A program made the position numbers and the translations under genes. Shown in pieces: positions 1,279 to 32,113 of a stretch of DNA of 64,000 nucleotides. This DNA is from Phyllosticta citribraziliensis (lineage: Eukaryota): assembly GCF_038025025.1 (NCBI RefSeq), contig NW_027117352.1, forward strand, positions 186,001 to 250,000, in the 5' to 3' direction. The notes beneath the pieces were generated by a model. It was not told the origin of the DNA. It ran no database searches and saw only the letters and a program-made list of their open reading frames with translations. How positions within the stretch are numbered: position 1 is the first letter of the stretch; each line of letters opens with the position of its first letter.

Positions 1279-2017
1279 TCAGGGATGTGTCTCCAAGGTG
1301 TCCATATCCGTACACTCCATATTGTCCTCAATGGTAGTGACGGAGCGCCAGACTCCAGTAGTCCTCGACGAGGGTAAGCTGGAAGGAAGATCTTCAAGAT
1401 CAAGATCGAGTTCAAAAAAGGGCAAAATGTTGCGACGGACATGGCGTCGGTGGCGATATCGGCCCTGCTGGCCAGGACGAAGGCCTCGGGACTGGATTGG
1501 TGACTGGCTTGGCCCTGATGGCAAGGGTTCTGGAGAAATTGGCGTGTTAGAAGTTAGTCTGCCCGAAGTACGAAAGAAAACAGAAAGTGGTGCCAGGTAT
1601 GGATGGTTCAAAACCAAAATATCCATCATGGAGCGCTCAGTGATTGGTGACGGTCCCAGACAAGGAGAGTCCACCAGATTGTGTGGGTCGAGTTGTTGAC
1701 CACGGACCGTCCGGAGTAAGAGATGAACTGACCTGACGCTCCGCAGTTGCGCCTTGTCGAGTCCTTCTTCATGACGGTTGCCATGAATGGCCAGAACCAT
1801 TTCCGACACATGAAGCCGGTGAGTGGAACGGCCACTGCCAGAGCTAATCCAGCTAAACCGATTTTGGCCTCCATTGACCAAGTGGCATCGTTCTCTGGCG
1901 CTGAGTATGATCAGTACTGAATCAGACTGTTGTTTTGGGAAGCGACGAACCAATGAAGCCAGTTGAAGATGCATTTAATAGGTCGGTATGCACAGATTCG
2001 ATGGATTCGATAGCCAT
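1279..2017 (-). CDS. SxEA-TM small single-pass membrane protein, copy A (~161 aa, 3 exons)
   Basis: Exons 2017-1951, 1900-1733, 1529-1279. Introns GTTCGT..CTGAT..CAG (50 nt) and GTCAGT..CTAAC..CAG (203 nt), both phase 1. Spliced: MAIESIESVHTDLLNASSTGFIAPENDATWSMEAKIGLAGLALAVAVPLTGFMCRKWFW...EPLPSG...LETHP*. Confidence 0.75.
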
Positions 2018-2460
2018 TCTGCGTCCTTTGTACAATTCCAACGATCATAAAAGACCAAAATCGACAAAGGGAGGAGGATGGTGGATTGAAAAGAGATGGG
2101 AAAGGGACTTATTTTATGCGACCCTTTCGAGCAGAAGTAGGGTCGGTATAGGTGAGTCGCACGAGCTGTTGATTGGGCATACCGGTACGCTGCTCTATCG
2201 AGGCTTTGAAGCGTCAGGGGCCGTGCAACTGTCCCAGCTCCCCGTATAAACTGCAACTCTTGACCTCGGGCGTCGTTGCCTTCGACGCATGCCAACGCCG
2301 CTGTGGCAAGCAGAAGGGAACCTTTACCGACCTGTCTCGCGTGTGCTGTCGCAATTCATGTGCTGCTGCAGTTTGCTGCGCAGTCATCACCAGCCCTGAG
2401 CCTGGCCCGGTGTCGAACTGACTGAGTTCTCGCTGCAGTCCTTCTTAAAAAGCGCACCTG

Positions 2461-2571
2461 CGTGGGGAGCAAATTGGGAGACCAGGTCGTCACTGCGGGA
2501 AATGCTACAGTGCCACGCTCGTGGGGAGCAAAATGGGCGACTAAATCGTCACTGCGGGAACTGCTGCAGTG
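2461..2571. repeat. Imperfect 2-copy direct repeat, period 59 bp
   Basis: cgtggggagcaaa-ttgggagaccagg-tcgtcactgcgggaa-atgctacagtg at 2461 versus cgtggggagcaaa-atgggcgactaaa-tcgtcactgcgggaa-ctgctgcagtg at 2520. Confidence 0.85.
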
Positions 2572-3542
2572 TGACTAGGAGTGACATTCGACAACGTCGA
2601 GGTTGCTATGGCTTGCGGGATCGAATCTGGATTTCTTTTGGCCCCCGCGTCGGAGACTCGGTTGCACATGGTGCACCTTCTACTACCGGCTTGCCTTTGC
2701 GCAAAGCAATTCCTCCTCCCTCGGCCTGTCGATCCTTACGAGTCAAGGTTTTTTGGCCATTCTTAATTTGCGCACGAAGCACCTATGATCCAACACCGTT
2801 GCCTGCGTGAGATAGAGGTCCGCAAAGTCTAGTCGCGTAAATTGAGTGTTCCGTGGGCCACTTGGACATCCGCTTCCACACCCCGCTCGGCCTGTCAGCT
2901 TACGCCGACCAACGTGTACCCATAATTTTCTGTTGGACCTCTGCTGCCGGCCCATCTGAATTGTCGGCTTACACCGGCAATGGATTCAAGAAGAGTGTTA
3001 TTGTCTCCATCCAGTCTTGGTATTTTTTTCAATTCGCCACGGAACGCACTCGCGTTGAGGAAGGGTGCCATTCCTGCGCGCATCCCATGTCAGGCCTATC
3101 GACGACCGTCTGTTACCCCTTGGTCATAGACATAAGTATAACAATTTAATCTTTGATTTCCTCAATCTTCCAATCCGTCCATCTTCCCAACTGTGATTGC
3201 GAGGATTCCCGTCAAGACGGTGCACTAGCGGGAGCGAAACCGTCCACGCGCACGGACAGCGGCCCGTCCCGCATCATCACAGGCCATTCCTTGTCTTGCA
3301 CTTTGAAGACTTCTCATTGCATTTCAGTGATTCTGTATAATGAACTAGTAAATCATAAGCATCGATCCGTCGTCCCAATCTCTTCGGTGGTTGTTTGCCA
3401 ACTCCAGCTCAAATGCATGTCGTTTCTCATGTTCATAATTCGTTCCAATTTCATGATTTGACAAAAGAAATGTGTTCCCCAGTTCCCCAGTTCACCTAAG
3501 GCATTCAGACTTGGACGTTTACCAAGCATTTAGCCATACAGA

Positions 3543-4349
3543 TCACACGCCCAAGGGTTGAGGCTCTGGAGTAGACGTATCGCAAGTTGACCTTTCCAGT
3601 TCCGTCTCTGGCGACTTGAAAGGGAAGTCACACGGATCAGACGATGAACGGCGCAACGACGTTGGTGGCCGGTCTGTTGTCGAGATTCGAAACTCTTCAT
3701 ATGCGACTCTGTACATTTTTCGGTGTCCGAGAGAGGAATGTGAACGTCGTTTGAAGGTCTGAATATCGGCCGGCTGGATCTCCAGTCCCTCCTGAGGCGG
3801 ACTCAAAGGTGGTGGTGGTGGCAGGTTTTGAGGGAGGGGCTCACGTCGGACTTCGATTGGAACATCCGGTTGCTCTGCTCAACTCAGTATGGCTTCAATT
3901 AAACAACTAAAGACTCGCGGTATCAGGAGGACAAACGGAGACTTGTCCTCTACCGACTAGAATGAACTTACCTGGATCCGGTCCCTTGCTGGATGACGAG
4001 AATGTGTTCTTGTAGGATCCGCACAGGCGAGGAAAACAGTCCCCCAAAGCGACTACATGGCTCACAAGCCACGCGCCAACGGCTTTCAATGTGGTGGTAA
4101 ACCGTGAAAATGATCGTGAAAGGTTGCGCTTGAAGATGCCGTAAAGATTTGATTCAACAGCCCAGTTGATTACAGCAGTGACAAAAGGGACAGCAATCGC
4201 GACCAAAATGGCGATCAGTCCGAGTTTAGCCTCAAGGGACCAAGAATCTGCACTTTCGGGGCTTGCTGTAAGTTGTTGAATTAGCAATGATACCATACAT
4301 TTAAGTGGGCAAGGATAGACGAACCACTTCGGACTGGGATGGGCGGCAT
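3543..4349 (-). CDS. SxEA-TM small single-pass membrane protein, copy B (~216 aa, 3 exons)
   Basis: Exons 4349-4325, 4265-3972, 3874-3543. Introns GTTCGT..GCTAAT..TACAG and GTAAGT..GCAG, both phase 1. MPPIPVRSASPESADSWSLEAKLGLIAILVAIAVPFVTAVINW... TATAAA about 100 nt upstream (4451-4456). The intron-2 acceptor is uncertain: an alternative TAG at ~3907 would stop the protein almost immediately. Confidence 0.7.
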
Positions 4350-6592
4350 GTCGCTGAGACTGACTGAAAGAGGGTGAGGACGAACTCTGAAGTGAATGAC
4401 TTGTTCGATGAGAATGCTGAGAAAAGTGCAGTGATCCAATCCGCAAATACTTTATACAGACCATGGCTCGCGTAACGCACCAAGGAAAATTCAGAAGAAA
4501 AGACGGTAAAGGGTTTGGAGAGCCTAGAGAATTCACTTGTGTTGGGTGTGGGGTACCTTGACGAGGTGGCTTGGATTGATTGGACAGTGTCGTTTCGCTT
4601 TGCGACGATTCTCGTCCGCATCCCTGGAAATCAGCCTTGGGGACACTCCCAAAGGTACAGTTCAGGTACTGTGCCACATGCAAAGGGTAAGGTGATATGG
4701 CGGTGCGCACGTTGCGCTTTCCCGGCCAATGGATTTTTCGCACCGCCACCACCAACACGCCGAGGACAAAAATGTCGTCAGATGTGATTCTGTGCATGAA
4801 GATTTTGCGCACCCGAGTCCATGGACAAACGAATCCTTGTTTACGTGCGGAGTCTACCCTTTGTCCATCTCTTACATTGCGATCAAAGAAGACGCAGGAA
4901 GCGAGTGTTCAGTCATTTCCACGGAGCCGGGAAGTCAATCAGAGCTCTGGAAGTTGTGAAATACAGACCACAGTTTGCATGAGGAAACAGGATAGGAAAG
5001 ACTGATCGACAGGTTGCAGGGCTGACCTCCCCCATTCGGTAGGCATGTGACTAGCTGGAAGGATTCCAGTAGGGACGTGGAGAGGTGCAGGTATGCCCAA
5101 CTCATTGCAAGGCTGATCAACGGTCTCGAAGCAGATAGATCTGCATCTGTCAACGAAAACGGCGAGCCGGACATCGTCTTTTCTGACTGTCACCTGCCTT
5201 GCTTGCTAATCAGTCGGAGTGTTGTTTGAAATCCTCTTCTTGTTCTTTCCAGTTTACAGTGAGTTCGGCAAGGCATCAAGTTGCAGAACAATCCGAAGTG
5301 GTCGATATCTTCTCCTGATTTCAAGGCCTGCTGGTGCGATGCAAGAGCAAACAGTAGACATTTTTTGCAAAGACAACAACCCGCAGGCGATGCCGCGGGT
5401 CCCGTCTCGTCCCTTTATCTTTATCCCTTCTCTGTTTGCCGCGTTCCCCTCCTGGTCTGTTGCGCTTCGACAGTTTGTCGAATCCAATCTCTCAGACGTT
5501 CATCCTAGTGAAATTGTATACTGTCGCAAGTCCCTTGGACAGATTGCGCATTGATTGATTGGATCAGGGCGACAGCTTGGATCTGCGTGTCCGGCAGGTG
5601 GAAAATCTCCCGTGTTTCCAACAGCGATGCGACCGAATTTTGATCGTGAGATTGCCCAAGACGAACAAGATCATTCAAAGCAAAGTGACGAGGGCTTTGA
5701 GCAATCGAAATGCTGTGGCAGACTGCACGGCGAGCGGGCGATACGCCGCACCTGGTCATGTCAGTCTAGAGCCACGAAAGTCAACGGCAAGCAAGCTGGT
5801 GCACCGTCTAAACAAACTGACGAAGAGTTTTTGCGCTGAGAGCCAGGTTTGCTCGCTTCCGATGCTGCGACTGACATGCGTTGTGGATCCCCACTTTGGG
5901 GCCAAAATGCCAACGTGTGTTTGGTTTGCTGCCCTTCTGTCGTCTGACGAGGTACTTAAAGCCTTACGCCCCCGACTTCTGTGTCGGCTTCGACCCAGAA
6001 ATTCGCCCCCAAACTGACCCCTCCGACTCGTTCTACGACAGTTGGGGTCTTCCCACAACAATCTTCCGCACCAATTCCTCGCCTGTCAGTCTACCTGTCG
6101 ACTTTGGCTAATGTTTTGAACAGAGAATCTTTCAAGTCTTTCAAGTCGCATTCCATCCGAGATCTACCGTTTCAACCATATGAAGTCCTGCAAAACTTGA
6201 CCGTTTCCTCGCTCGTCGCGTTCGACGCTTCGTTTTTCGTAGCGCTGCGCGCAAATCTGAACCTTCACACTTGTGACCACCAAAACAGGGGCCTATGTTC
6301 AGGAAACATTGTACAATTCTCTTGATAATGGTGGAGCGCGACAACGGAAAATTAAGGACAAGAGCTCTCCAGACCCTCTTGGTATCATAACAAAAGCGCG
6401 TGCCCAAAGTATACCCTTGCGCGACAGGAACCTAACACGGAACAGCAAAAGGAATTTATTTGTGTTGAAAACCATTGGAAATGAAACGCTCCTTTGTGCT
6501 CCAGATGATGCTTGACAGCGTCTAATTGCAATAATTCCTGGGCTCTCAGAGTCGGGAAGTGACGAGGGACTTTTGTTTGCCGGTTGTATTAT

Positions 6593-7056
6593 TTAATGTT
6601 GGATGAAACCGCGCTCCCTAACTGAAAACTGACCCGGTATCGTTGTCGGAAGACCACTAAGGCTCATGAATACCAGAAAATCAACACGAGCAGGCGTCGG
6701 AATGTGTCCGCCTCGATGATTTGGCGATGCGACCGGTATCATTGTTGGCAGCATGGGGACAGCTTCTGCTTAATTTAACTTTGGCGTTACTTGAAGATGA
6801 TCTGTCTTTTACCTGGATCTTCATCTCTACGAGAAAGACTCGCGCTGAACAACTGTCTGATGATGTGGAGGATTCGGTTTCGAAATACAAAGCCAGAAAG
6901 TGGTACTAGGACTGCCAGTACGAGACCAACAATGCCTATTATTGCTTCGGTTGATGGACCTGATTCCCCAGACGTCGATTCTAGTTGTATATTTGAACCT
7001 GCCACAGTGAGATTGGTAAGTGCTTGTAGGCAGGGGAGCGTTGACTAACTGTTCAT
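6593..7056 (-). CDS. SxEA-TM small single-pass membrane protein, copy C (~121 aa, 3 exons)
   Basis: Exons 7056-7050 (ATGAACA), 6998-6813, 6765-6593; phase-1 introns of 51 and 47 nt. MNSSNIQLESTSGESGPSTEAIIGIVGLVLAVLVPLSGFVFRNR...DEDP|EAVPMLP...RVDFLVFM...FIQH*. Confidence 0.78.
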
Positions 7057-8557
7057 GATGGCCTAGGTCTCAGTTCCTTTTCTACAGATGAGATTCAGGA
7101 AGGACGAAGTGAGGAAATCAAAATTGCCAGGAGATCAATGAATGCAAACTATGGTGTGAGTGAAAAAAGTAAGATGGAGAATCAAGATGTTTAATACTGA
7201 TTTCTGAGTTTCTCTGCCTGTTTGTGATGCCTGTTTAAAGCCCGTTGGGCGATGCAACGTGGCTATCCTGCATTCAGACTAGTCTCCCTAGGTCCTATGT
7301 CGCTGCCAAGACTTGCACTGCCTTATAGTACACTAACCCCAAACAGATTTGTTGTTCCCGGGCGCAGATCAGTTCTACACAAGACCCTGCATAGATCAAG
7401 TCTTTGTATGCTCACTGCTCGTTAATGAGATGCTATTTGTAATTATTCATCTTTGAATTCACAAGCATTGTTCACTCAATGTTGCCAAATTAATTGAGAC
7501 AGGAAAAATTGTTCCGAAGAATGTTTCTGACGCCTCTGTAAGCGCGACTACGCGTTCCTGCAATACTCAATCCCATGTCTGTGTGCGTCGAGCGAACGTT
7601 GAAATCCCATCGTGCTGTCACGACCAGCCATCTCGAGCCAAAAAGTGAGACAGGGCAAGTGTAACCATCAGAAGTAGCTCCGGCGCTCGAAAATTTTGTT
7701 GAATTTCATACCAGTTTATCTCTTTTGTGATCATTGTTTGAAGTCTGTGCTGTTCTTGGAGGGCAAAAGGAATATCCGCAAATCGGACAACACAAACTAC
7801 CAAGGTGCCCAAAATATTTGCACTCTATCAGAACCCTGAGCTTGAGATCCATAACCTGTTTCTGAGTTTCTCACCAGGTGGCTTCCTGAAACCTCATGCT
7901 TTTGGGTTGACAAAACTGCCTGATCCGGTTAGCGCGAACCAATCCACCGCAAAAACGTGAACAACGTTCAATCCGGAAACTGGGCGCCAGTAAAGGCCAA
8001 TCCACGCCCACGCTGTTGATAAAAGAAGCTTTTGAGTGGCTCGGACGAACGTGTTGGCGTCAAGGTAATCGAGAATGGGGCAGACCGAAAAGTCCAGAAG
8101 CAGACGCCATGTCCGCCGAGAAGCTTCTCTTGGGTCACACCGACGCTCACGACTCGACGATTCGACCTCTCCACCTTGGGATCCGTCTTGAAATTGTTCG
8201 TGTCTGTCATGAACCTGCGGCATCATGAATCCGACTGCCTTGCGGTCGGGTTCCACGTGAACTCCACATGAGGTTTCTTAGACGCGAAGGAAGCTTGAGA
8301 TGGCTCAAATAGCAGTGTGAAATTTATAGAGGAAGCTAAATGAAACAATTAAAGAAGATGATGACACGAGGCCTGACGTTTGAAACCTGAACGCAGACCA
8401 AAATGGAACTTTTCCACCAAAAGCTTTTAGCTTGAAATTACCTCGCGATCCAGCAGTTATTGATAACATGTTATACATAGATTCGTACAGGCTCCGTCAT
8501 GTGGAGAAGCCTTTTGGCGGCGGAGTGTAGAGACGGGAAGGTGTTCCAGTAACTGAG

Positions 8558-9001
8558 TTATTCGCAACGCAATTCGAGTCGGTCGCCATCGGATCTGGGA
8601 CTTTGGTCGCGGAAGTAGTGGACCCAGTCACTGGTAGGCGAGGGGTCTTGCGGATCCTGGTAGTTTTCTCCGGCCATGAATATGGGTATGAGTTCTGATA
8701 GTGTCAGATTTGGAAAGCGAGGTGTGCATCGCAGCAGGTGCTCACCTATATCGAGTACTTTGTCCTTGGACCGTTTGAGGAATCGAGATATTTGTCGGCG
8801 GAGAATGAAGCCAAAGATTGGCACGAAGACTGTGACGAGTACACCGACGAGGCTGATGATCGCTTCATTTGACAGGGTAGATCTTGGAACCGGCGCGGGC
8901 GAGGGCGAGGGAAAGGGAGAGGGCAGGTGTGGGGGACTGTTTGTGTCTACGACAATTTCAGTCAATGTTGCGGTCTTGGAAAACATTGCCATACTGTTCA
9001 T
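8558..9001 (-). CDS. SxEA-TM small single-pass membrane protein, copy D (~114 aa, 3 exons)
   Basis: Exons 9001-8995 (ATGAACA), 8946-8746, 8694-8558; phase-1 introns GTATGG..TAG (48 nt) and GTGAGC..CTGAC..CAG (51 nt), both in-frame and stop-free. MNNTNSPPHLP...TLSNEAIISLVGVLVTVFVPIFGFILRR...LDI|ELIPIF...RCE*. Confidence 0.8.
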   Translation of the reverse strand: MNSMAMFSKTATLTEIVVDTNSPPHLPSPFPSPSPAPVPRSTLSNEAIISLVGVLVTVFVPIFGFILRRQISRFLKRSKDKVLDIGEHLLRCTPRFPNLTLSELIPIFMAGENYQDPQDPSPTSDWVHYFRDQSPRSDGDRLELRCE

Positions 9002-10977
9002 CTGGATGAGGAAGGAATGTGAGACCCAAAGCACGTGGTATTTGGGATGTGACCTCTGTTTCCAACTGGATCTGTACAAGGACGGACAAAAATATGGCGC
9101 GTAGGACTACGGAGAGTGTGGGAACGTTCTCTGGGAAGTGCGCTCCTCTTGTGAAGAAGACGGTGTGGATGACGCTTGTCGATCCCTCCAAAAAACAGAG
9201 GGGGGAAGGCGCAAGGACGTCCGGGGCCAAGGTCCGAGAGGCCGTCGATAACGGGGCGTGGCGAGGCTACGACGACAACTTGGCGGATAGTGTCAAAGGC
9301 AGCGGCATGTGTCCTCATTTACGCTGCCGACACGCACCGCAGAAATGGTTGTTGTGGGGAATCCTGCCATGGCGACCCGTACATGAAATGGAAGGACTTA
9401 TGATGACGCTGGCGTTGGCGGAGTCGGCCTGGGCAAAGGATGGCACTGCAGGTACGGATGGTCTGCATTTTTGCCACTCGATCGCAGGTGTTGACACGCG
9501 GCGGTCCATGTGGTTGCAGCGCAGTAAGCCTCAAAGACGCACGAGAGACAAAAAGTAAATTTTCCCCAACACAACCCTTGAGGGCTGGGAAAAGGTCGGA
9601 TATTTGAGAAGTTGATCACGGCAATGGTGCCTCATTCACTTCGCGCCTGGAAGAACCGGACTGCGGTCATCGGCATCACCGAACCAATTAGCCACCATGC
9701 GCTGTCGCATGAAACACGTTTGAATCCCCGTGGGTCAAACGAAACGTCGGCCGTACCTTGCAGCATACCTTGTCGACAACCTCTAATGACCTCCCGGCCG
9801 GCAAAGCTGCGGAGTCGGCAACCTCATTTTGAACGTCGCCCAGATTTGCTTGGCCACCGCGATGCACAGAAACAGCAGTGAGGTGGCTCCGGGACAAGCT
9901 CGTGCTGCGGACCAGCCACGAGACTCGTAACAGATGGCAGTTGAACCCACTCTGAGACCTCCACCGCAGTAGCCCGTGAAGGCAGGACAGGAGTTTTGCC
10001 TATCAACGCCTCATATCATCGCAAGAGCGGCGTTTCAGCCGTATGATCGTCAGGGCGTGGCACAAGCAACACGAGGAATGAATAGCCGTGAACGCATGGC
10101 GTGCGGCTCTCTGGGAGGCCGGCAATGTCGAGTGGACAAGAATGGACGCGACGAAAAAACATGAGACGAAGAGGCTCTGCGAAGGTTGGGAGAAAGTGAA
10201 TTAGCCGCCCGGTGCCTGAAACGTTACCTCGCGTCCACTCGCCTGTTGCCTGTCGACTGTCGCCTGTCATCGGCTGCCACGTACGTACCTTGGCGGAAAT
10301 CGCCGCGCACGAGCAAGCCCTGTGTCTGAGGAAATGTCGTACGACGCCTTTCACCTCGTGCAGGAATGGCACAAACGACCCATCGTCGCACGAGCCTGAC
10401 GGCCACAAGTACCCCGCAGCCCGCGCATGAAAATCCCTTGAGACGGCCGCTTCGACTTTTCCAGAGTCGTTTTGGCAGAGATCAAGTGGAAGTCGAGTCA
10501 AGCGCGCTAACAAGTGGATCCAGGGCTCCACCACGGGCCGAGCCGCCTAGTCGATGATCGTCGCCTCGTGGCAAGGACTCCCTTGCGGCAGCGCGCTTCC
10601 ACCTCGACCGACAGCACACATTCAACGGCCAAACCTCGACTTTCGCACAGTCGCACAGTCGCATAGTTTTGCATCCAGAGATGGATGATGATATAGCTTC
10701 AAGATTGCCAGGAGTCGAAACAACTCCGTCTTGAACAGGGGTATACATGCGAAAGGAATTGGTAAAATGCTGGCCTCAACTGCGAGGATGGGAGAGACAA
10801 GAAGAAAAGAAAAGAAACGACACGGAAAGGGGAACCGAAGGCCAGATTCGCCAATTCTATGATGCAACAGATACCTCCGTCCACGATGCCGCTTGACGTT
10901 CCGCAATCTACCTTGCTTGAAGGAGAGGCCGCATGCATGAGACGCTGAAGACAATTCAATGCCAGGAGAAAGTGTTT

Positions 10978-11486
10978 TTAGAGGTTCGGTAACGTCCCCT
11001 CAGGAAAGACTGGCTGGTTTCCCGCAAACTGTTCGATTTGACGATCGAGCCGGGGCGCCTCGGCCACAACTGCGCGGTCCAGATTCAGAATCAGGGACAG
11101 GTCGATGCGAGTGGAGAGCATTCTCGGGCGCTGATCTTGAGCCTGTTGCTGCTGCATGGATTGCAACGGAAGGATGGGGATCGATTCTGCATGAGTCAGC
11201 AAGTCCACAGATCTCGAGTCTCCATCTTGGCAGATTTTTGGGACTGACCGGGGTCTGATGCGCATGCAGAACGTTTCTTAAGGCGTCTTTGGACTACACG
11301 GAAGCCGAAGCCAAGGAGCGGCACGACGATCGCTACGCACACACCAGCGATTGCAATCTTCGCTTCGGCCGATAAGCCTGAGCTCCCTGCAGCCGCGGAT
11401 GCAGCAGGCTGATTCGCTGTAGTAGTGTCTGTGGTTACATGAACACGTGGCCTGGTGATGGACTTCTCATCTGACTTACTGTTCAT
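10978..11486 (-). CDS. SxEA-TM small single-pass membrane protein, copy E (~131 aa, 3 exons)
   Basis: Exons 11486-11480 (ATGAACA), 11428-11249, 11186-10978; phase-1 introns GTAAGT..CAG (51 nt) and GTCAGT..GCTGAC..CAG (62 nt). MNNTTTANQ...GLSAEAKIAIAGVCVAIVVPLLGFGFRVVQRR...SDP|ESIPILP...RIDLSLIL...LPNL*. Confidence 0.82.
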
Positions 11487-12695
11487 CTTTGTGGCACCCG
11501 ATCGGGTGAATCGGACTGCTCTTAGACCGAAACTGAAATCTTTGCGAGTGCTCTGGGGTTTGGAGGTGCCTCTTCTTGCGAGGACGTGAATGTTATGAAC
11601 AGAGAATGATTTGGTGCAATGAAGAAGACAAAGCGGAATTGAACTGGATGATACAAGACCGAGTCCAGAGAGGGTAGGCAGCTCATTATAGGCCTGAATT
11701 CATAGCGGAGAAACGGTGAGATGAAGCCAAAACTGAGAAATGGTGAGATGAAGGAGGATTTATTGGTCGAAGGGCGATAAATAAAGCGGGCTGTACAAAA
11801 TGAAGAAGGAAGCGGGCTGTACAAAACACCAAGATCGCATATCCACTTCTGATGAAGAGGAGCCGAACGAGTTGGATGATGTCGAAGGAGAACTGAGAAA
11901 GAGGCGTGTGGTGCGCGGCCGGCACAAATGCAAGGCCACAGACGCTACGAAGGGAATGATGTCGAAAAGGGAACAGAGAAGAGAGACGTGGCGCGCGGGC
12001 CGGACAATCGCAAGATCACCTAACCATGGCTTGGCTACACAGTTGATTTACCCAAACCTAGAGAATGATGATGCGGACCTTCAAAGGGGGCTGTGCAGAG
12101 AGGGTGTAAAGTGGATTTGCCCGAACTCACAGAGAGATAATCTGAACCATCCGCAAAGGCAGAGAAACGGTGGCAGGCTATGCCCAGGTCCTACGAAACG
12201 GTAAAGGGGGCTGTGCTGTCGACCGAATATCAAAAGGCCGCGAGGGGATGTCCTTCTCAACGAGCTTCAGGCAGTTATCAGTCGCCAGTGCATAAGGCTA
12301 GAGTTCTTGCAATCCAGTCTTTACTTTACTCTGTTGCTCGTCGGCGTGTCGGAAGTCTCAAGCTGGAGAACTTGGTGAATCTATACCCTTAGTCGCATAA
12401 TCCATAAGGTTGATGCATTTCCGATGATTGAGCGCTCAAAGGGGGCATCGGATCGCCTGGTGCGCGAAATGGTTGCCTCGCTTCGGATCGCTCAGCACTC
12501 TCTATTCCATCGGATGGATCCACATCTCATCGAAGGACGCAGGGAATTCCTAGACTATGAACCGAATTCGAGTCTGAATTTTGAGCTCCTGGTCCTTTTG
12601 CCATGTGCAGTGAGACACTGAAGTTATGGTTGCCATGTAGGCAATTGGTCGACAACGCAGTGGAGGCGCCGCATCATACGCTGACGCGCTCCATA

Positions 12696-13062
12696 TTTCC
12701 TGTGCGCTGACAAGCTTCGCCACCACGAAACTCGCCTTGGCACAGCCCCCAGAAGAGGGCAGTGCAGTAATGAGAACGAGAGATTTGTTGCTTTCTCAGT
12801 TCTGGAGCAAAAAGCTCAAGGTCAAGTCCTCTCGACATGAATGCCAAGAAGACAAAAGTTCCAACCGCCAGAAAAGATGTCTGGTTTCTGCGCGCTGACA
12901 AGCGCCACACCAAAATTCGCCTTTGCACAGCCCACAAAAGGGGGCAGTGCAAAGATGAGAATGAGAATACTTGATGCTGTCGCAGCACTTCTCAGTCTGG
13001 AGCACAAGTCTCAAGAACTCATCTCGACCCGAGTACCAAGAAGACAAGATTGCCAACCACCA
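12696..13062. repeat. Diverged tandem duplication, two copies with period ~189 bp
   Basis: Co-linear blocks gcgctgacaagc / gcacagccc / gggcagtgca / atgagaa / ttctcagt(t)ctggagca / ctcaag / tctcgac / ccaagaagacaa / ccaacc(g/a)cca recur from ~12696 and from ~12885. Confidence 0.85.
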
Positions 13063-15379: not shown

Positions 15380-15798
15380 CACGTGGGGGGAGGCCGAGGC
15401 GACGTCCGGGTCGCGAGGCGTGGACAAGGCAGATTTTTCATCGCGGTCAGCCAAGAGGGCGGAGAAGGCCGATTCGCGCTTGGCAGTTGGCGTCGTGATC
15501 TTGTCTTGCGGGCGGCATTGCTTCGGTTGCTTGAAAGGCATGAGGCGGGCTTGGGAGAAGGGGCCCAGCTTCGCTCATGGCCGTGATGGCTTGCAGTATG
15601 GCGCGGCGAAGGATGGAGCGGCGAGGCAAACGAGAGGGTCGGGTAGCATTGGTGTCGTAAAGGTCGAGGGTTTGGCAGGGACAAGCGAGAGGGACGCGGT
15701 GTTTGGTGGTTGCAGAGGGGAGAGGTGCAGCTGGGTGGTGTTGCGGGCGTCGCGGCATGATTGGCTCAACACCAACACGTGGGATCCATGATTGGCTC
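15380..15798. promoter_or_regulatory. PHO84 promoter: two CACGTGGG Pho4/NUC-1/PalcA-type boxes; the proximal box is flanked by a CATGATTGGCTC direct repeat (CCAAT on the minus strand)
   Basis: CACGTG at 15380-15385 and 15776-15781, both followed by GG; CATGATTGGCTC at 15756-15767 and 15787-15798; upstream of a phosphate transporter gene. Confidence 0.7.
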
Positions 15799-16144
15799 TG
15801 GGCGTGTTTGCGCTGCCAACGGCGACACTTTGCGCCCAGGACTTGGCCGCGTGCGTCTCGCCCTTGGCAGGTCCGGGACACTAGTCATTATTCCCTGCTC
15901 GTGCACCTGTCACACCTTGCCATTGGCCTCGCAACCCTCTTGTGCCGTTATGGTTGACCCTCGATGTCGGCCCCCAGATTCCTTTTCAGCACCTCGCTCC
16001 GCCCAATGAATGAGCCTTTCCCCCGATGGTTTAGTCCCTACATATATCTCCCATCCACCTCACCACCTGCCGTCGCGTCCTTGCAGTGTCACTTTGCATC
16101 CATCGTAGCACCATCTCTTCCGCCAGGCCGGCTCCGCCTTCACC

Positions 16145-18060: not shown

Positions 18061-18081
18061 ATGGTGTCTTGTTTGTTGCTT

Positions 18082-18082
<1 letters not shown>

Positions 18083-18112
<30 letters not shown>
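18083..18112. repeat. (GAC)10 microsatellite just after the PHO84 stop codon
   Basis: Read directly from the sequence. Confidence 0.95.
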
Positions 18113-18114
<2 letters not shown>

Positions 18115-20667
18115 TGCTCGCCTGCCGCCTTTTCCATGGTCGTGGCAGGCAGTGTGGGTTGGCTGGGCGCGCCGCCGCTTTCTCCCTTCCTTCGTTTTAA
18201 TATATCACGGGCGGGTCGAATGGTCGCTCTCTTGTTTTCTTCCTCTTCCTCTTCTCCTCCATTACACACGCTTCTCAAACCCGATCCTTAGCTCGCTTGC
18301 CCCTCGTACCTCGACATACCCCTCGACACGCAAGACTGAACGGACGGACGGATTGACGGAATGGAACGGATGGCCTTGGGCTGGTTGGTTGTTTGGATGG
18401 TCGGTGCGTGGGCGGTTTTCTGCGACCAAACAAATCGCTTTGGGGTGGTCGTCTTGCTTTCCTCTTCCCTTTTCCCTCCAAAATTCAAATCTAGACAGCG
18501 AAGAAAAGATTCGATCGCGCCGCTAAAAATGCTCTTCCATCTCTGCTCTTGCGTCTTTCATCTTGTAACTGCGACGGGTAGTAGGTAAAGTAAGGCCTGT
18601 CAGCTCGCGCCCCACACAGCAGAACGATCTCGCGGCCCCCGGAATCCAGGATCGAAGGGTGGGTGCGGTGGGTGGATTTATCCGTCGGCTCGGCACATCT
18701 TCCGCCGCGGGCAGGTGGGGGCCATGTTGTGATCGGGCCGAATATTGGACGGTGCTGAGCACGGCATGGCGACGAGAAGGAAACAAACGGATGGCGATGA
18801 TTTGAAGATTGGTGCGAGTCGAGAGCTGGAGAGGAGACGAGGGATGCGCGAGGATGCTGCAGACGCTTTACCTATAGAAGGACAGTAGGAACGTGCGTGT
18901 TTGCGCGTCGTCGCAGGGCACAGGGAGACGGAACGAATCCAAGGAACTCCTGAAGAAGACACCACAAACCGTCGGCAAGCAGCACATCTCAAGTGACGTC
19001 TCTCCCATCGGCCCAGCAAGTCGGCTCAGTGCGTTAAACCTGTTCCTGACGCTGCGGTCGTCGCTCAAGCGAGGCAGGGCAGCGACTGTCCGCCCCACAT
19101 TTCTCCCGGTCCCCTCCCTCGCTCGCCTCTCCCGGCTCCCGCCCGCGCGCGCCGCCATCGAACGGTCCGTCTGCTGCTCGCTCCACATCTGCAGGGAGGG
19201 AGAGGGGGAGGTGCTGGCGAACGCCCAAGTCAGCACTGTTGGGCAAGGATTTCAGACCACTCTGTAAAACAGAGCAGACTTGCGGTTCGTTAATCTGATC
19301 TTGTTTCTCACGGCTCTTGCAAAAATGGCGTCGAGCAATAATAATAGACACACACACATCTTACACACCCAGTCCCAAGCATCCGGATCCCAGGCAGACA
19401 CGGCAGGCGCAGCTATACACATTACCTACATGATGCAGCCAGCAACCGCGCACCACTTCCCTCTGCATCGTCTGCTTCGTCTACTGCACCTCATCCCCCC
19501 CATCCCATGCCGCCGATGCGAGCCACCAACAGATGCCTCCGCCCGCCTGCATGCAACGCATGCACCCACCCGCTGTGCCGCCGCCGCCGCAGCCCGCGGA
19601 CCGGGGTCCTGTCCAATCACACGCCGCCAAATCGCTCCGCGCCGTCCAGTGTTGAACGTCGCCGGGACTTCTGCGGCGCCGTCGGTCGGAGCGACGGCGG
19701 GTTGTGTGGGATGTGATCAAGGGCATGGGGCGCTCGAGACGCGAGGGACAAGGGACGGGAAAAAGGAATGGTGGGTGGAGTGGTGGTGGAGGCGTTGGGT
19801 GGAGGGGAGGGGAGGGGAGGGGAGGCAGCAGGTACGCGTGGAGTAGGCCATCGAGCTGGACTTTGCTCTCTCTCGCTCTCCCCGCATCTAGTGTCTCGTC
19901 ACGCTGGATATGAAGATGGCATACAGCCGTACATGCACTCTCGCTGCCACACACCAAGACGGTGGTGTGGATTCTCGTCAGGGAGAAACGGGAGCGGCCA
20001 GGAGAGCCAAAATTAGCTGATTTGTTGCTGCGGCCCGAAGAGAGACAGATGGCCTGCCAGGGTCTAGGGTCTCGAACCACCGGGCGAACTCGAGCCGGTG
20101 CCAGCTGGCTGGGCGCCGGCGGCGGAGATGTGTGGGTTGCATTTAATCCGTTCGCAATGGAATCGATGATGCCGCGCCTGTTGGTTGTTGTGTTCGCTGG
20201 AAATGCGAGTCGTGTTGCTGAAGGGAAACGCGTGTAGGAGCCGTCGTTCTGGAAAGCAGCGCCGTCTTCTTTTGTTCTCCTCTGCTGCGTACCGTACACC
20301 GTACACGGTAGCACAGTGAACTCGCAACACCATTATCCAACTACAACAATAACAAACGCTGCTCTCCTGTCGTCTGCCTCCAGTCTCAACACGCACATTT
20401 CATCCATCCCCCACATGGAGCTGCATCGATCAGCGCGAGCCTTCGGCCCACGCATCCATCCACCAATCGCCAAACTCCACTGTCCTGTCCGCCCCGATCC
20501 ACGACGCACCCGCCGTAGTGGTAACCACCCCACAACAACCAACCGAAGCGGCCAAGCAGCCAGCCAGCCAGCCAGCCCTACCCCTAAACCCACCCTCGCG
20601 CCCATTCATCCATGCCCTTGGGTCTCCCTGCCCTGCCCTGCCCTCCCCTGTCAAATCTCCGGCCCGC

Positions 20668-20696
20668 GCTGCTGCTGCTGCTGCTGCTGCTGCTGC
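20668..20696. repeat. (GCT)9 microsatellite
   Basis: Read directly; lies in a low-complexity intergenic region. Confidence 0.95.
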
Positions 20697-23374: not shown

Positions 23375-26300
23375 ATGTCGTCAAGAAAGATTTTTCCTTG
23401 GACAAGAAGGGAGCGGAGGAACGCCCTCAGATCCTACCGCGTCGATGGCTTAATACCAGTGGCCATGTACGAGCCGCACTCTGGCCGAGCAAGAGCAATT
23501 CGAAAACGAAAGGTAAGCAAGTCGAGGCCGCGCGTCAGATCAGAGAGAGGAGCCTGCGGTTAGCTTGGTAGTCCGTGGAGAGCCGTCGCGTTGGCGCGCA
23601 ACGTGCGTTTTGAGAACGGCTCCATTTTCTGAAACCACCGGACGCGGGAGCATGTCATCTCTCATTGACAACACCAAATAGAAGAGCCACCGGCCAAAGC
23701 CTCATAACATTGCCATTCCTTCACCGCGAACCTCGTTCGCATCATGTTTCGCTCCTCCCTCGGTGCTGCACGATGCTGCGCTGACCTCCGTCTCGTCCGC
23801 CTCACACCTCTTCGCCGCCGCCGCCACTGACATGTTGCGCTCTCCCAACCTCAACAATGTTGTTCCGCCCCAATCCGTACAGACTCTTCCCTCGACCCAG
23901 TATCGCGCCAACGCCACCCCGTCGCTCCCTGGTATCGCAGAGCTGCCTGGCTCGCTGCTCCAGGAAAACCAAGGCTTCCCGGGGGACGGCGACTCCCAGG
24001 ATGAAAATAGACCGACTGTAACAGAAAGCGCGGGGAGTCCACGTCTCCAAGGCCAAGAGCCGGATTTGGCAACACGGCTAGCCGCGGCGCGCAAACGGTG
24101 CCTAACCGTAAACACTGCCGCTATGCCAACAGACGCAATGAGCCCCGGTCTGAGCACCGGCGGCACCCAGGCTTCCAGAATGTCTCGTCGGAGTGGCGAC
24201 TCGAGATCTGCTAGTTACCGGAGCAGCGATTTCATGGGACGAAGGGGCATCCATAGCGACAACAGCTCCATGTTTTTCATGCCCTTGACAGAAATAACAG
24301 AAGGATCGAGTGTTTATGGAGGCTCCGAGGGGTGCAGCACACCCTCCAAAGTAAGCAGCCACAAATCTTCCATCACGTGCTTCTACTACCATGGAGACCT
24401 CCGTCGAGACTTGTTCCTCTTTCAAAGTAAAGCTGACAGGGTCGGCGCAGACTTCCAATGACCCTGAGGCGCCTGCTTCCGAGAATTTGCAGGAGACCGT
24501 CCTCGCAAGAAACAAGACCATCTTCAACCTGAGGTCTCAGTTTGTCAATTTGCGCAAGTCTCACAAGGCGCACATTCGGACTCTGGTCGATGCGCATACC
24601 AAAGACATTGAGGCTATGAAAAGTTATATCGATTTCTTGGAAAGCACACGTGGAAAATGTGAGAGCCTTCTCCCCACTGGCGCGAAACTGCTAATGCGCC
24701 CAGCAGCACCAGACCAGGACCAAGATGGAGAAAAGAGCGTTTCCAAGCCGGTCACAGCGGACCCGCCTCAATTGCCACCGTTCAGCGCATCCTCGATAGC
24801 CCCACGTACACCTGCCAAAGATGGCGACTCGAAAATGAATGACGATGATAGAGATTCTGCCGAATCAGCCAAAGATTTTGAAGAATTGGCCAAGGTCAAA
24901 AAATCGCTCTATCACGCAAATTGCCAGATCCAGGCCATGAAGGAGCAAATGGAAGATTTGGTTGCCAAGAAGGACTCGTACAAGGAAAGAGCTGTGGACT
25001 TTGAAGTAAGAGTGCGGAACAACCAGGAGATCATTGTCGATCTGCGCGACACGGAATACAAGCAGGAGTCGGAAAACAGAAGACTGCAGGACAAGCAAAA
25101 GAAGCTCAAAGAGCAACTGGAAACTCTGCAGAAGCAACACCAAGAGCACATCAAGAATCTTGTACAGGAGAACGAGTCTGCCAAGCACTACGCCGAACTG
25201 CTATCCGACCAACTGAAGAGCAGAAAGGGACCCAACGACACCAAGACGACCGTTGCCGAATTGCTTACCATGGTCGAAAGCTTGAACAAAGCGCTGAGAG
25301 AAAAGAACACCCGCATCCAGGAGCTTGAACGCCAGAACCGCGCGCTGCAACTCGATCACGACGAAATGGAGCACAAGCACGCTGCCTACGTTGCTAGACA
25401 CGACGAGGCACTTGCTCGCGAGACGAAAAAGAGACGCAAGCAGATTGAAAAGGCCAAGGAGGCAGAAACTCAAATTTCAGGCCTCAAGATGCTTGTTGAG
25501 GAACAGGGCAAGGAGCTGCAATCTGTGCAAGCAGAATACGAGCGCCTGCGAAAATTGCTGCATGCGGAATTGAGAAATCAGGCCAAGGATGCACTTTCAA
25601 GAGGCTTCATCGCCAGCAAACCATCAAACAACGACGAGTACTTCGAGCAAATTCTCAAAGATACTCGGAAACGCGTGCAAGACTTGATTGCCCAAGAGTC
25701 GCAGGCCAAGTCTTACGAGCCGGCATTCAATCCATACGAACGCGTCGAGCAATTGGAAAAGGAGATTGAGTTTCATGTCCGCGACCTTATTCACTTCAAG
25801 CGAGAAGCACGAGGCTTCAAAAAGGAAGTCAAACGCGCAAACAGCAAAATTTCTGATCTCAGCACTAGTCTGATGGCATTTTCTGCGGAGCCGTCTCCCG
25901 CCTCGGCCTTGTCAGCACCAACTAAACAGTTCCTTCTCAAGGACTCTCCAGATCGACGCCCAAACGGCCTGGGCATCTCTGGCCCTGCTAAATCTGCCGA
26001 TTCGCCCGAGGTCTTCCGATTTCCGGCTTCGACTCAGACCATCACTGCTCCGCCCACTATGCGTGGTGTCCCGCATTCTGCACCCTTACCACCACTACCA
26101 CCGACCCCCTCGGCATCTACGTTTGGGTCACTGAACCGCTCACACAGCAACAGGCAGCTGCGTGGAGAAATTCCGGTTCAGTACACCCCGGCCCCGGCAC
26201 CTCCTCCCATGGCTCCGCCTCCCAAACCTCCGAAGCTCCATCGTCCAGACTCGGAGACGCTGCCCGCTCCTTTCCTGCAGCAGATTCCCCGGACAAAACG

Positions 26301-27318
26301 ACAACCAAAGAAACATAAACCACCAGCTCTCTCCATTACTGCACCGCCCTCTTCACAATCGGAAAACACGAGGACGACGCCGTCGCCATCTACATACTCG
26401 ATACCTACAGAGCACAAGCCGACACCTCCGCTGCCCTCAGCCACTCTGGCTCCCCCCAAGTCTCCATCAGGTCCCCTTCACAGGAGAACACCGTCGGAAC
26501 GCTCCTTTGGTCTCCTCTCTCCATCCAGCTCACAACCTGCGCCGCCTTACACTTCGGCTGCAGCATCTGACAAGCCGAGTGCTTCTCCGTCTCCCTCCGG
26601 AGTCACCATAATGCCCAGTCCGCCTCCGCCTCCACCGAAGAATAAAATTATCCATGCGCCCTTGTCACTCTATTTGACGGCGCCAGCCCACATGTCGACA
26701 CTCGACACGATCCGCTCAGACTCGACCGTCGATGGCATGTCGTTGGCCGACGGCGACGAAAACGAAGACGAAGACCAGCCTCTGCTCAAGCCGGGCAATC
26801 CGGAAGTGTTGCAGAGGAGCATGACAGCCAGCATCATATCAGGCTCTGACGAGGCTTCTGGCAGCATGATCGGCGTGGCACTGGGCGGCGAAGAGCACGC
26901 ACGTTACGAGCGCGCGCCGCGGGACGAGCGACGCCACGGGCTGCTCCCTGTCAACAGGGACGAACACGCGTTCGAGAGCGCGCGCGAGAGCCGCGTCCGC
27001 GAGAGCTGGGCGCGCGAGGCCGTCGAAGCGCTCATGGCCGACGTGCTGGCGCGCGTCGAGGAAAACGACCGCGTCGAGCGCCAAAAGAGCCAGCGCAGCC
27101 AGCGGGGCCGCGGCGACGCTGCTGGCGCGGACACGGACCAGCGTGGTCCAAGAGACAAGTCGCTGCCCGGCGGGCCGGACGACGAGGATGGCGACGGCAT
27201 CGGCAGGACGCTCCGGCGCCTGGGTCGGCGGCGCGGCATCGACGTCGAGGGCCTGCTGAGCCGCTACAGCAGGAAGGGCGTCGTGATGCAGGGCAAGGGC
27301 GAGGTGACGCAGTTCTAG
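23375..27318 (+). CDS. Large coiled-coil plus proline-rich protein of unknown function, 3 exons
   Basis: Phase-0 introns at ~23513-23681 (GTAAGC..TAG) and ~24351-24450 (GTAAGC..GCTGAC..CAG) join ORFs 23270, 23763 and 24391; long E/K/Q/L heptad-like stretch followed by PPPP-rich disordered region. Confidence 0.8.
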
Positions 27319-29347: not shown

Positions 29348-30184
29348 ATGGACATGGACTGTACGATAGGATGCCATAGCGGAACCCGATACAACCCAAA
29401 TACTCATTGGCAACAGGTCTTTGCACGCGCAAGTCGCATACTCCCCATGGCTCCAGCTTGTCCAAAGAAGCCATCATCGCGATTGTAGGAGTTGTACTTG
29501 GGGTTCTCGTTCCAATTTGTGGGCTCATTGTCAAGCGACTGCTGTTTCGGAACGCTGCAAAGACACCCGCCGCAGACATCAGCGTTGAAGACCGAGGTGG
29601 GGGTAAGAGCCATCTCAAGAGCCGATACGACTTCTTGAGCCAGGAATGAGAACGAGTACAACGTACTGATTTTTCAAGGACTTGGTTACGCAAACTCGGT
29701 ACCCGCCAACGCTGAACATGGCAACGAAAGCAACATGACGATCATGGCCAATACCAGCCTTCGCAACTCGAATGCGCACAACGTGCAATGGACACGACCG
29801 AGCAACTACCACGGAATATCCAACGGAGGGCGGCCGCCCTCCGTTGATGATGGTCCCCTCCGCGGAATTCTCCTGGACAGTGCTGATGGTAGCAGATCCG
29901 TGCTGGACGACCCAAACGCGTCTGACGTTGTTCGACCTCGGAAGCCTGATGATCAAAAGACACTGGCCAGCATTGGCAACGCTAAAGACGACAAAGGAAC
30001 GGCAAACAGATCTATCTGTCAGTCTCGACCAGAGGCAAATCGTCAGTCCAAGTCGTCCCTTGGACTCCAAATGGACCGGAATCCCCCCGTTGTCGGCATA
30101 GCATCTGTCCCTGCAAGCCAGCTACCTCAGGATGTTCCCGCCGACTCTTCCACCAACATTCCGGACAACCACACCAGGATTTGA
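29348..30184 (+). CDS. SxEA-TM small single-pass membrane protein, copy F (~234 aa, 3 exons)
   Basis: Exons 29348-29360, 29417-29602, 29679-30184; phase-1 introns GTACGA..CAG and GTAAGA..CTGAT..AAG. MDMDCLCTRKSHTPHGSSLSKEAIIAIVGVVLGVLVPICGLIVKR...; exon 3 continues into ORF 29735-30184. Confidence 0.75.
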
Positions 30185-31670
30185 ACTCCGGGACAAGGCC
30201 TCAAGTTTCCAAGGATGTTGCCGGACTTTCCACGGACGCCCTGGACGTAGTGTCGCGCGCGGTTCTCTTGTGTCCCAAGAGAAGGCGTGGATTTCCTGTC
30301 GTCCTGGTTGCCACAGTGCACCTTCTTCCGGTGTGCTGTTTCATTTCGTTGGGGTCTACTTTCTGTCTCTTTCGATTGATGTTCCCATGTACACTTTCCT
30401 TTATTGCTGTAAAGGTCGCGGGCAAGTCTAGAAGGCTATTCTTGTGGAGTCGTAGCGTTGAGCAACACGGCGTGCTCAATGCGATTTGGGTCTCTCAAAA
30501 TCCACTGGAAGTGTATGCGAGTGGCTTCATGGACGACGCTTTCACTGTCTTTATTGTTGTTCAACTCAGGGTTGAGTTGAGTTACCGCTGTAGTCGTCCT
30601 CCAATGAACCGCTCAAATGCACACCTGACAAATGACGCAGGACAGAATGTCATATCTGCGCGGCCGTGGACCATGCTGGTTGATAGACCTCTCAGCTATC
30701 CGTAAAGTGACGGACAAGACCACCAAAAAGATGCTTCAACGAACCGTGTCACGGCCGAATCCAGGGGAATAAGAGTTGCACTGACGGTGATGGATGATAG
30801 TGATGACTGGCGGGTGTGAAGATGGTTTCGCTAAACGGGGTCGTGGTTTCTAGAAGAAAGTGATGGAAGGAATTTTCCGGTCAAGTTTGGACGTCGTCAT
30901 CTCCCTGAATCCAGGAAGGTTCGCAACGGACATTGATTGAACAATTTGAGATTTTGTTCCATGATGACTGAGTGGAAAGCGAAATATACCTATAGATACC
31001 ACGCAGCCTCAATAAGAGCCAAACCACCGAGCCCAAGTTGGTGACTTCAGCGCTTCCAGCTGGTGCTCCAAATAGCAGCAAAGAAGCAGCGTAGGTGCAC
31101 TCAGATACTCCTAAATCCATTATGACGTGGTGTGAGAGGCCACCGGAGCAACAAGCTCGCTCCCCGCCAAGATATTGCTGCGTGCGTGGCAAAAAAGGCT
31201 GGATGCTGCCGCTCGGAGCCGAGGCGTTGAATTGTGGCGCACAAAAAATTGTAGGTGTGAATCGTTGCGCGCCTGTGAGTACTTCAGCGTCTGGCTTGCA
31301 GAAGAGAGGAATGCGGCGCTGGTTGTCTATAGGCAGCAACGCCAACCGCTAAGAGGTAGATCAGCCGATAAGCTGGGAGGTATGATGCGAATTTGATAGG
31401 CCGGTTACTTGCAGCCGAACGGGATGGGTCCTTAAGTAGACGGCCGAAACAGGCCCAGTCCAATGGACGCGCAGTCAGCAACGTCGACGTGCATGCATCG
31501 ACTTGACATGTATGCATCGCGTCGCGTCGATGTGCATGCAACAGTAGCCTTCCATTTCATCCTTTCAGGTGCTCATCATGGTAGGAGAAGTCTCTGTCTT
31601 TATGTCTCTGACCATCCTTTAAATCGTAGTTACCCGCACGAGTAGAAGACGCAATACTTCAGTTCCGCTA

Positions 31671-31696
31671 CTCTCTCTCTCTCTCTCTCTCTCTCT
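31671..31696. repeat. (CT)13 microsatellite just upstream of copy G
   Basis: Read directly from the sequence. Confidence 0.95.
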
Positions 31697-31742
31697 CCAC
31701 ATTGAAAGTGTTTCCTCGCGCAGTCCCCTGGCATATGAAAAC

Positions 31743-32113
31743 ATGAACTGTACATCACCCAAAGCCCTCGTACTTAATCCTCAACTGACAAAGCACAGCC
31801 ACAACGTACACACCGGTCTTCGCTTTACCTCAACACTCAGAGCTGTCAACTGAAGCCATCATCTCCATCGTTGGCGTAGCCGTCACAGTCATAATACCAA
31901 TCACCGGCCTCCTACTACGTCCCGTAGTATCCCGGATACTGTCGAAATGTTGGATCCAGAATACCATCACCACTGAAGACACAGATCTTGGTCAGTTCCT
32001 TCGCATCTCCAATGTCCCAGGACTGTAAACTGACGATGATAGAGCTTGGAACGCCGCGCCCAGAAACGACCGAAACTCAGCGTGGCAGTATCGACGAAAG
32101 ACGGACTATATGA
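31743..32113 (+). CDS. SxEA-TM small single-pass membrane protein, copy G (~89 aa, 3 exons; absent from the ORF track)
   Basis: Exons 31743-31749 (ATGAACT), 31799-31990, 32043-32113; phase-1 introns GTACAT..CTGAC..CAG and GTCAGT..CTGAC..TAG. MNSTTYTPVFALPQHSELSTEAIISIVGVAVTVIIPITGLLLRPVV...TDL|ELGTP...RRTI*. Confidence 0.78.

Follow-up and report, generated by a model that had tools for sequence, protein, structure and literature searches.

A transcribed and conserved family of small one-helix membrane proteins, outside the named families, in Phyllosticta citribraziliensis

Small bitopic membrane proteins are under-studied, and they often prove to be regulators of pumps, channels or trafficking. 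Several described systems come close to the genes reported here. First, the FXYD proteins (PF02038, ATP1G1/PLM/MAT8), an animal family of Na,K-ATPase regulators, are small single-pass proteins with a short exoplasmic N-terminus, an invariant motif ahead of the helix, glycine and other small residues within the helix, basic residues after it and tails that vary between paralogues. Second, the Mid2-like sensors (PF04478) are fungal single-pass proteins with a Ser/Thr-rich outer part. Third, type III viral proteins such as influenza A M2 (PF00599) and influenza B NB have the N-terminus outside and the C-terminus inside (N-out/C-in) without a signal peptide, and combine one helix with a very short ectodomain and possible N-glycan sites near the initiator Met. 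In a 64,000-nucleotide stretch of the Phyllosticta citribraziliensis genome (the window), we analysed seven genes, A to G, which resemble each of these systems in the features just named. As shown here, they form a real, expressed and conserved family of small one-helix membrane proteins, called the S-x-E-A family after the motif in front of the helix, which belongs to no named family.

The seven copies comprise a left array of five genes on the minus strand (A-E) and a pair on the plus strand (F and G), with the following positions in the window.

1279..2017, minus strand: gene A, 161 residues; coding exons 2017-1951, 1900-1733 and 1529-1279; introns 1950-1901 and 1732-1530; core peptide 1800-1883
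3543..4349, minus strand: gene B, 216 residues; coding exons 4349-4325, 4265-3972 and 3874-3543; introns 4324-4266 and 3971-3875; core peptide 4162-4245
6593..7056, minus strand: gene C, 121 residues; coding exons 7056-7050 (7 bases), 6998-6813 and 6765-6593; introns 7049-6999 and 6812-6766; core peptide 6877-6960
8558..9001, minus strand: gene D, 114 residues; coding exons 9001-8995 (7 bases), 8946-8746 and 8694-8558; introns 8994-8947 and 8745-8695; core peptide 8795-8878
10978..11486, minus strand: gene E, 131 residues; coding exons 11486-11480 (7 bases), 11428-11249 and 11186-10978; introns 11479-11429 and 11248-11187; core peptide 11295-11378
29348..30184, plus strand: gene F, 234 residues; coding exons 29348-29360, 29417-29602 and 29679-30184; introns 29361-29416 and 29603-29678; core peptide 29455-29538
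31743..32113, plus strand: gene G; transmembrane (TM) exon 31799-31990; likely 7-base first coding exon 31743-31749, followed by intron 31750-31798; core peptide 31840-31923

The core peptides of all seven genes match exactly, and at the places given for them, the TM peptides quoted in a preliminary description of this DNA. Using a profile built on the seven cores and four relatives, which was scanned without filters over all stop-to-stop frames, we obtained exactly 7 matches in the window at 63.7-76.2 bits, while the runner-up scored 5.7 bits; the window therefore holds exactly seven copies of the family, with a signal far beyond chance. The bare motif S-x-E-A-x13-P has 12 matches in the six frames of the window, seven of them genes A-G, and the remaining five (at 19065, 53190, 13601, 39712 and 22102) are not hydrophobic. 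Start codons are 2332, 2707, 1945 and 2485 bases apart in the left array and 2395 bases apart between F and G, in agreement with the spacing first reported (1.9-2.7 kb, measured as 1945-2707 bases, and 2.4 kb, respectively).

The seven genes share one module, in which a polar stub of 17-30 residues, often with M-N-x-S/T at its start, leads into [W/L]-S-x-E-A, a helix of about 21 residues and then a basic stop. Small residues recur along the helix at intervals of three or four positions; P is placed at +17, G at +20 and R/K at +24. When positions were counted from the Ser anchor over 57 distinct cores, W or L was found at -1 in 52, E2 in 56, A3 in 49, G/A/S6 in all 57, G/A/S9 in 54, P17 in 50, G20 in 48 and R/K24 in 50, and the most variable positions (11, 15, 18, 19 and 22) form one narrow stripe. 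In the seven genes of the window, S, E, A and P are invariant (7/7) and small residues occupy E+4, E+7 and E+11, as had been proposed; the other feature of membership, phase-1 introns that follow the start and close the TM exon, is likewise present.

The extent of the family was assessed by an exhaustive HMMER profile search of 1.84 billion representative proteins, which gave 58 matches at E<=1e-3, six of which come from the window itself; 14 matches reached E<=1e-10, and no match reached E<=1e-30. The conserved module or a close variant is present in 57 of the 58 matches. P0028 (2398 residues), a chain of receptor-kinase units with S/T-rich TM segments but no E-A, was rejected as a compositional false positive. 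The members, about 90-234 residues long, include proteins from P. capitalensis, P. citrichinensis and Zopfia rhizophila; the relatives with organism names (Phyllosticta species and Zopfia rhizophila) are the following.

Named relatives: P0008-P0010, P0013, P0016-P0019, P0049 and P0059-P0061

The public models of Phyllosticta species and Zopfia rhizophila, all entered as 'uncharacterized protein', belong to the same family and carry no family name, domain or function. In a protein-language-model atlas, the closest neighbours of gene E and a Zopfia protein were unnamed clusters from Ascomycota, with 56, 315 and 77 members; the highest score was 0.91 and the others were below 0.9, a level that, according to the tool's own statement, a third of shuffled proteins reach. 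The structure neighbours offered by the atlas, all unrelated bacterial proteins with a TM-score of at most 0.52, were set aside. A metagenome scan with a narrow alignment returned three loci, two with a partial match of 26.6-27.2 bits and a third at 13.6 bits that is probably a chance match inside a long open reading frame (ORF), and no second family copy was found on the 9-kb metagenome locus. The family is thus real but small and unnamed, and it is apparently restricted to ascomycetes.

Two features of foreign members may be mentioned in this context. The models P0011 and P0012, from other species, contain two S-x-E-A helix modules each; they are either fused tandem neighbours, which would hint at a tandem arrangement elsewhere, or true two-helix proteins. 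In addition, the distant members P0038, P0048, P0057 and P0058 have a common C-terminal end, in which a run of basic residues leads into T-[I/V]-V-[L/F]-V-[L/V]. P0040 has a looser variant of this end, which may be a subfamily-specific C-terminal signal.

Comparison with described families supported the earlier statement that the family is not a named one. The seven genes matched no Pfam family at its cut-off, and no Pfam family recurred in more than 5 of 50 family members. A sequence-profile search of the PDB found no relative; the best of the 4 chains at E<=1 was a TM helix of MsbA (E = 0.066), and membership in a family of solved structure was rejected accordingly. The S-x-E-A genes thus matched no already characterised family, whether Mid2, FXYD, M2 or one represented in the PDB. 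A limited portion of the literature, on the P. citribraziliensis genome and on the string WSKEA, yielded no description of the family.

The gene models were compared with contigs from two public runs, X1 and X2, over window positions 1-20000, which covers genes A-E. The RNA label of these runs is a guess, and we treated them as derived from cDNA because canonical introns are skipped in them; the skipped introns include three in a neighbouring plus-strand sugar-transporter gene, which indicates that the contigs derive from spliced RNA. The introns of A-E, with GT..AG ends on the minus strand, are joined in contigs in 10 of 10 cases in X1 and in 6 of 10 in X2. The family genes are therefore transcribed and spliced, and the three-exon structure predicted earlier holds in A-E, all ten predicted introns having spliced contigs. 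For gene A, both joints occur in X1 contigs and the model is identical to public model P0001. Genes B and E (public models P0005 and P0006) each have the joint of intron 2 in both runs and that of intron 1 in X1. Both joints of gene C are found in both runs, within the highest-depth contig (contig depth cannot rank expression), and its joined exons translate to 121 residues. In gene D (public model P0002), the two coding introns are spliced in both runs, and an additional leader intron (9756-9661) in a long 5' leader has its joint in X1. Upstream of the ATG, the gene D contig extends over 9002-10430 through this intron (9661-9756), with ORFs of at most 106 residues; on the minus strand, this stretch implies either a 5' leader of about 0.7-1.3 kb for gene D or a merged neighbouring transcript. 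Between B and C, there is also a minus-strand spliced transcript (4714-5934), whose intron 5750-5819 is found in both runs and whose longest ORFs, of 100 and 79 residues, show nothing recognisable. This transcript may represent either a non-coding RNA or a long 5' leader belonging to gene B.

For F and G, the exon structure was taken from the sequence and from public models, and the coordinates of F were chosen to reproduce public model P0004. The three-exon structure proposed for this pair agrees with the public model in F, whereas the public model of G differs from it in exon 1 and in the acceptor of intron 2. Two options exist for this intron. In the model first proposed, intron 2 is 31991-32042 with a TAG acceptor, and the stop codon is at 32111-32113. 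In public model P0003, it is 31991-32044 with a GAG acceptor, the gene extends to about 32239 and exon 1 lies upstream near 31493-31579. Two observations speak for the micro-exon and the TAG acceptor: P0014, the nearest foreign relative of gene G, has an M-D-S-T start directly ahead of the shared stub, and with the TAG acceptor exon 3 opens on E-L-G, which 7 other members also have. For gene G, the model first proposed would therefore be preferred over P0003. The likely start codon of this gene is preceded, at a distance of about 50 bases, by a (CT)n microsatellite (31665-31700, plus strand).

The exon boundaries follow a common pattern. Genes C, D, E and G begin with a coding exon of 7 bases, ATGAAC followed by A or T, and F with one of 13 bases. 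Such a short exon precedes a phase-1 intron in 5 of the 7 genes of the window. All seven TM exons close with G|GT, a phase-1 donor, 15-25 codons past the helix and much later in B; this gene has a longer exon 2 than its paralogues, and its first basic residue past the helix comes late. A 'conserved Gly' seen in the read-through alignment is this G|GT donor at the end of the TM exon.

With regard to annotation, the profile search returned six P. citribraziliensis proteins, all named 'uncharacterized protein', which are the window's own genes (P0001-P0006). These public models are letter-for-letter the same as our exon joins for A, B, D, E and F, and G is represented by a variant model. For gene C, no protein was returned by either the word-based or the exhaustive profile search, the best relative there being 46% identical. 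Since this gene is spliced in both runs and yet absent from both protein searches, it seems to lack a public model, and gene C thus appears to be unannotated but well expressed. The idea that the family is hidden and missed by annotation was therefore mostly wrong: 6 of the 7 genes have public models, and it is true for C only. Some public models of relatives are fused, read through intron 2 or have a different first exon.

The layout of the proteins in the membrane was deduced from charge, hydropathy and structure prediction. Mean hydropathy is 2.6 over the 20 residues after the anchor, and the net charge over 61 family proteins is -0.7 before the helix versus +3.5 after it. By the well-established positive-inside rule, this bias would place the N-terminus outside and the C-terminus inside, and the topology is probably that of type III proteins without a signal peptide. 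Both parts of this proposal had been made before. The orientation is supported, indirectly, by the charge bias and a single confident helix, and the lack of a signal peptide by the pre-helix stub, which is 17-30 residues long in the seven genes and contains no N-terminal hydrophobic segment. By raw count, an N-x-S/T site is present in the stub of 32 of 61 proteins, which would fit a lumenal N-terminus, and an M-[N/D]-x-[S/T] start is found in 14 of 61. In the AlphaFold2 model of gene E (alignment of 50 sequences), a single helix spans residues 23-56, with a per-residue confidence (pLDDT) of 92-97 across the membrane part; it begins directly after the invariant Ser22, and the remainder is coil at pLDDT 54-74. 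A homo-oligomer prediction with four copies of E residues 1-62 scored 0.03 against a mark of 0.32, the alignment being unused by the tool; the score counts neither for nor against an oligomer.

The paralogues are old. The only DNA similarity left among the seven units is a stretch of 60 bases, at 78%, shared by D and G. When the 28 gap-free TM codons were compared in the 21 gene pairs, the mean proportion of synonymous differences (pS) was 0.76, which is saturated, versus a nonsynonymous proportion (pN) of 0.38; several synonymous codons encode the invariant S, E, A and P. Purifying selection on the TM codons, a condition set by the preliminary description, is supported by these values. For all seven paralogues, some foreign relative scores higher than every paralogue in the window, which means that the duplications predate the separation from those relatives and that the array is old. 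The birth-and-death pattern suggested at first is not borne out, as the duplications do not fit a recent process of this kind. The nearest relatives in other species are 44-69% identical, with 64% identity in the core (119/185), 45% in the stub (52/115) and 49% in the tail (223/453). The tails thus differ between paralogues and yet are not free to drift. Earlier, sequence outside the TM had been called barely alignable. This is correct between paralogues, except for an element at the junction of exons 2 and 3, and it does not hold across species, where the tails are kept (49%). The junction element reads D-P-E-x-I/V-P or E-L-G: [DE]P[DE] is found in 12 of 60 tails versus 3.4 +/- 1.7 in shuffles, and [EG]LG[LYT] in 7 of 60 versus 0.35 +/- 0.56, neither count being reached in 1000 shuffles. 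PPxY/LPxY motifs occur in 2 of 60 tails, the same as in shuffles.

From these results, we consider that the seven old paralogues are small membrane proteins, probably of type III, which probably, though by no means certainly, act as accessory or adaptor subunits in the manner of the FXYD, regulin or KCNE proteins. By the established rules of helix capping, [W/L]-S-x-E-A(-[I/V]) would form a helix N-cap with a hydrophobic staple, setting the start of the helix at the outer face of the membrane. The wide conserved surface of the helix may then pack against a partner helix, either that of another copy of itself or one in a multi-pass protein, and the disordered cytosolic tails with the junction motif could give each paralogue its own sorting or regulatory output. 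The likeness to FXYD proteins is one of architecture: only 1 of 50 members had a match to PF02038, at E = 0.071, and the motif ahead of the helix is [W/L]-S-x-E-A, not F-X-Y-D. Membership in the FXYD family was rejected, as neither a Pfam match nor the F-X-Y-D motif was found.

A more far-reaching form of this proposal, which we regard as doubtful, is that the genes represent an undescribed, perhaps Ascomycota-wide family of N-glycosylated type III micro-membrane proteins, whose N-capped, small-residue helix would bind to a single conserved machine of the membrane (transporter, pump or channel) and whose paralogue-specific tails would make the members interchangeable regulatory subunits. If true, the family would be a fungal counterpart of the FXYD, regulin or KCNE proteins. 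If a partner is found, the family would provide, as a natural series, seven different tails carried by the same conserved helix. At present, the value of the work is mainly descriptive, in that a family of 'uncharacterized proteins' is now defined by its motif, intron positions and likely topology, gene C is added, and exon 1 and the intron-2 acceptor of the public model of G are flagged as doubtful. Lineage-restricted families of uncharacterised membrane proteins are common in fungal genomes, and the finding of one is by itself unsurprising.

Several points weigh against the accessory-subunit interpretation. The function proposed here is pure inference, as are the adaptor, recognition or channel-regulator roles suggested at first. 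Anchoring the logo on the motif is partly circular, and hydrophobicity alone lowers pN in any TM segment, so that the ratio of pN to pS is no proof that a specific surface is selected for. Within the B lineage, conservation is higher in the tail (97/137) than in the core (15/30), and the nearest relative of B has lost the Pro. The counts of the junction motifs are inflated because related sequences are not independent. Another tail motif, a basic cluster plus hydrophobic strand, is not enriched (15 of 53 versus 12.5 +/- 3.0; 129 of 500 shuffles equal or exceed the observed count), and the canonical acidic dileucine [DE]xxxL[LI] occurs in 0 of 60 tails versus 5.3 expected. Organism names are available for few members only, which leaves the taxonomic range poorly defined. 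Even so, each of the four rival explanations that we considered has less support than the accessory-subunit reading.

The tail motifs bear most directly on the first of these, in which the proteins are cargo or adaptors of endomembrane sorting or quality control, the junction motif being an adaptor-complex signal to the vacuole or endosome and the TM segment a mere anchor. We consider this unlikely. The relevant form of the junction motif, E-x-x-P-hydrophobic-hydrophobic, is present in 5 of 60 tails with a fixed spacing to the anchor (+41 to +47), whereas shuffles give 1.6 +/- 1.2 and 19 of 1000 reach the count, and it resembles the proline-containing acidic dileucine signals of AP-3 cargo. 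However, the five tails represent no more than three paralogue lineages (C; D with P0025; E with P0034), and the number of independent motif events is accordingly small, and the lack of canonical [DE]xxxL[LI] signals noted above counts directly against such a role. Moreover, a helix that served only as an anchor would leave the strongly conserved, codon-varied S, E, A, P and G positions unexplained.

The width of the conserved helix surface would suit a homo-oligomeric, viroporin-like pore, in which a bundle of helices carries a Ser/Glu ring at the outer mouth and small residues line the lumen, as in influenza M2. The layout is the same as in type III viral proteins, with a short ecto-stub ahead of a single helix and basic residues where the cytosolic part begins, and a Flu_M2 cluster was among the language-model neighbours, as a lead only, at 0.75 and 0.78, below the 0.9 bar. 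The helix itself makes a pore improbable. His is absent from the seven TM segments and Trp is confined to -1 or to sites past the helix, so there is no H-x-x-x-W gate of the M2 type; nor is there any polar or charged residue in the helix interior that could line a lumen. Pfam gave no Flu_M2 match, and atlas scores below 0.9 are, as stated, reached by a third of shuffled proteins. Unlike the viral proteins, the S-x-E-A family thus has neither the gating His/Trp nor a Pfam match, and membership in the M2 family (PF00599) was rejected on both counts.

It is very unlikely that the genes are degenerate relatives of the Mid2/Wsc-type cell-wall stress sensors. Mid2 is the sole Pfam family that scores two of the window genes even weakly, with 18.0 bits for the read-through ORF of E, 13.2 for F and 15.0 for P0006, and the stubs are Ser/Thr-rich as in the outer part of the sensors. 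These scores lie under the gathering cut-off of 23.2 bits, just one of the 50 family members has a match at E<=1, and the match is restricted to the S/T-plus-TM part (profile positions 20-61 of 150). In addition, Mid2 proteins have a signal peptide and a mannosylated ectodomain of hundreds of residues, whereas the S-x-E-A family has no signal peptide and an ectodomain of 17-30 residues, and S-x-E-A, P and G are not Mid2 features. With a best score of 18.0 bits and without the signal peptide and long ectodomain, Mid2 membership was rejected.

Finally, it is very unlikely that the genes are functionless, fast-evolving, lineage-specific transcripts that are similar only by common descent and hydrophobic composition, as the lack of a known domain, the low structure confidence outside the helix and the identity of just 44-69% to the nearest foreign relatives might suggest. 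The module persists despite saturated synonymous sites, all seven paralogues keep the motif though their DNA similarity has vanished apart from the 60 bases, and every paralogue has a recognisable foreign counterpart, tail included. The genes also have introns at conserved positions and are both expressed and spliced.

Around and between the family genes, the window has an ordinary gene content: a sugar transporter, FHA, RRM, UTP6-like and PGAP2IP-like genes, a subtilase with TPR, and SLAC1-type and MFS genes. A search for shared promoter words gave a top 7-mer in 4 of the 7 upstream regions, and shuffles likewise reach 4. Three further stretches with open frames were noted.

24355-27318, plus strand: open frame of 987 codons between the two family groups, with no Pfam match
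50519-53321, minus strand: subtilase S8 domain and TPR repeats on adjacent open frames
53461-55656, plus strand: open frame of 731 codons, in which residues 83-160 alone give a weak glycophorin-like match, at 20 bits and under the cut-off

The subtilase and TPR frames are possibly one gene, which would be an unusual domain pairing. The frame at 53461-55656 may encode another single-pass membrane protein, unrelated to the S-x-E-A family.

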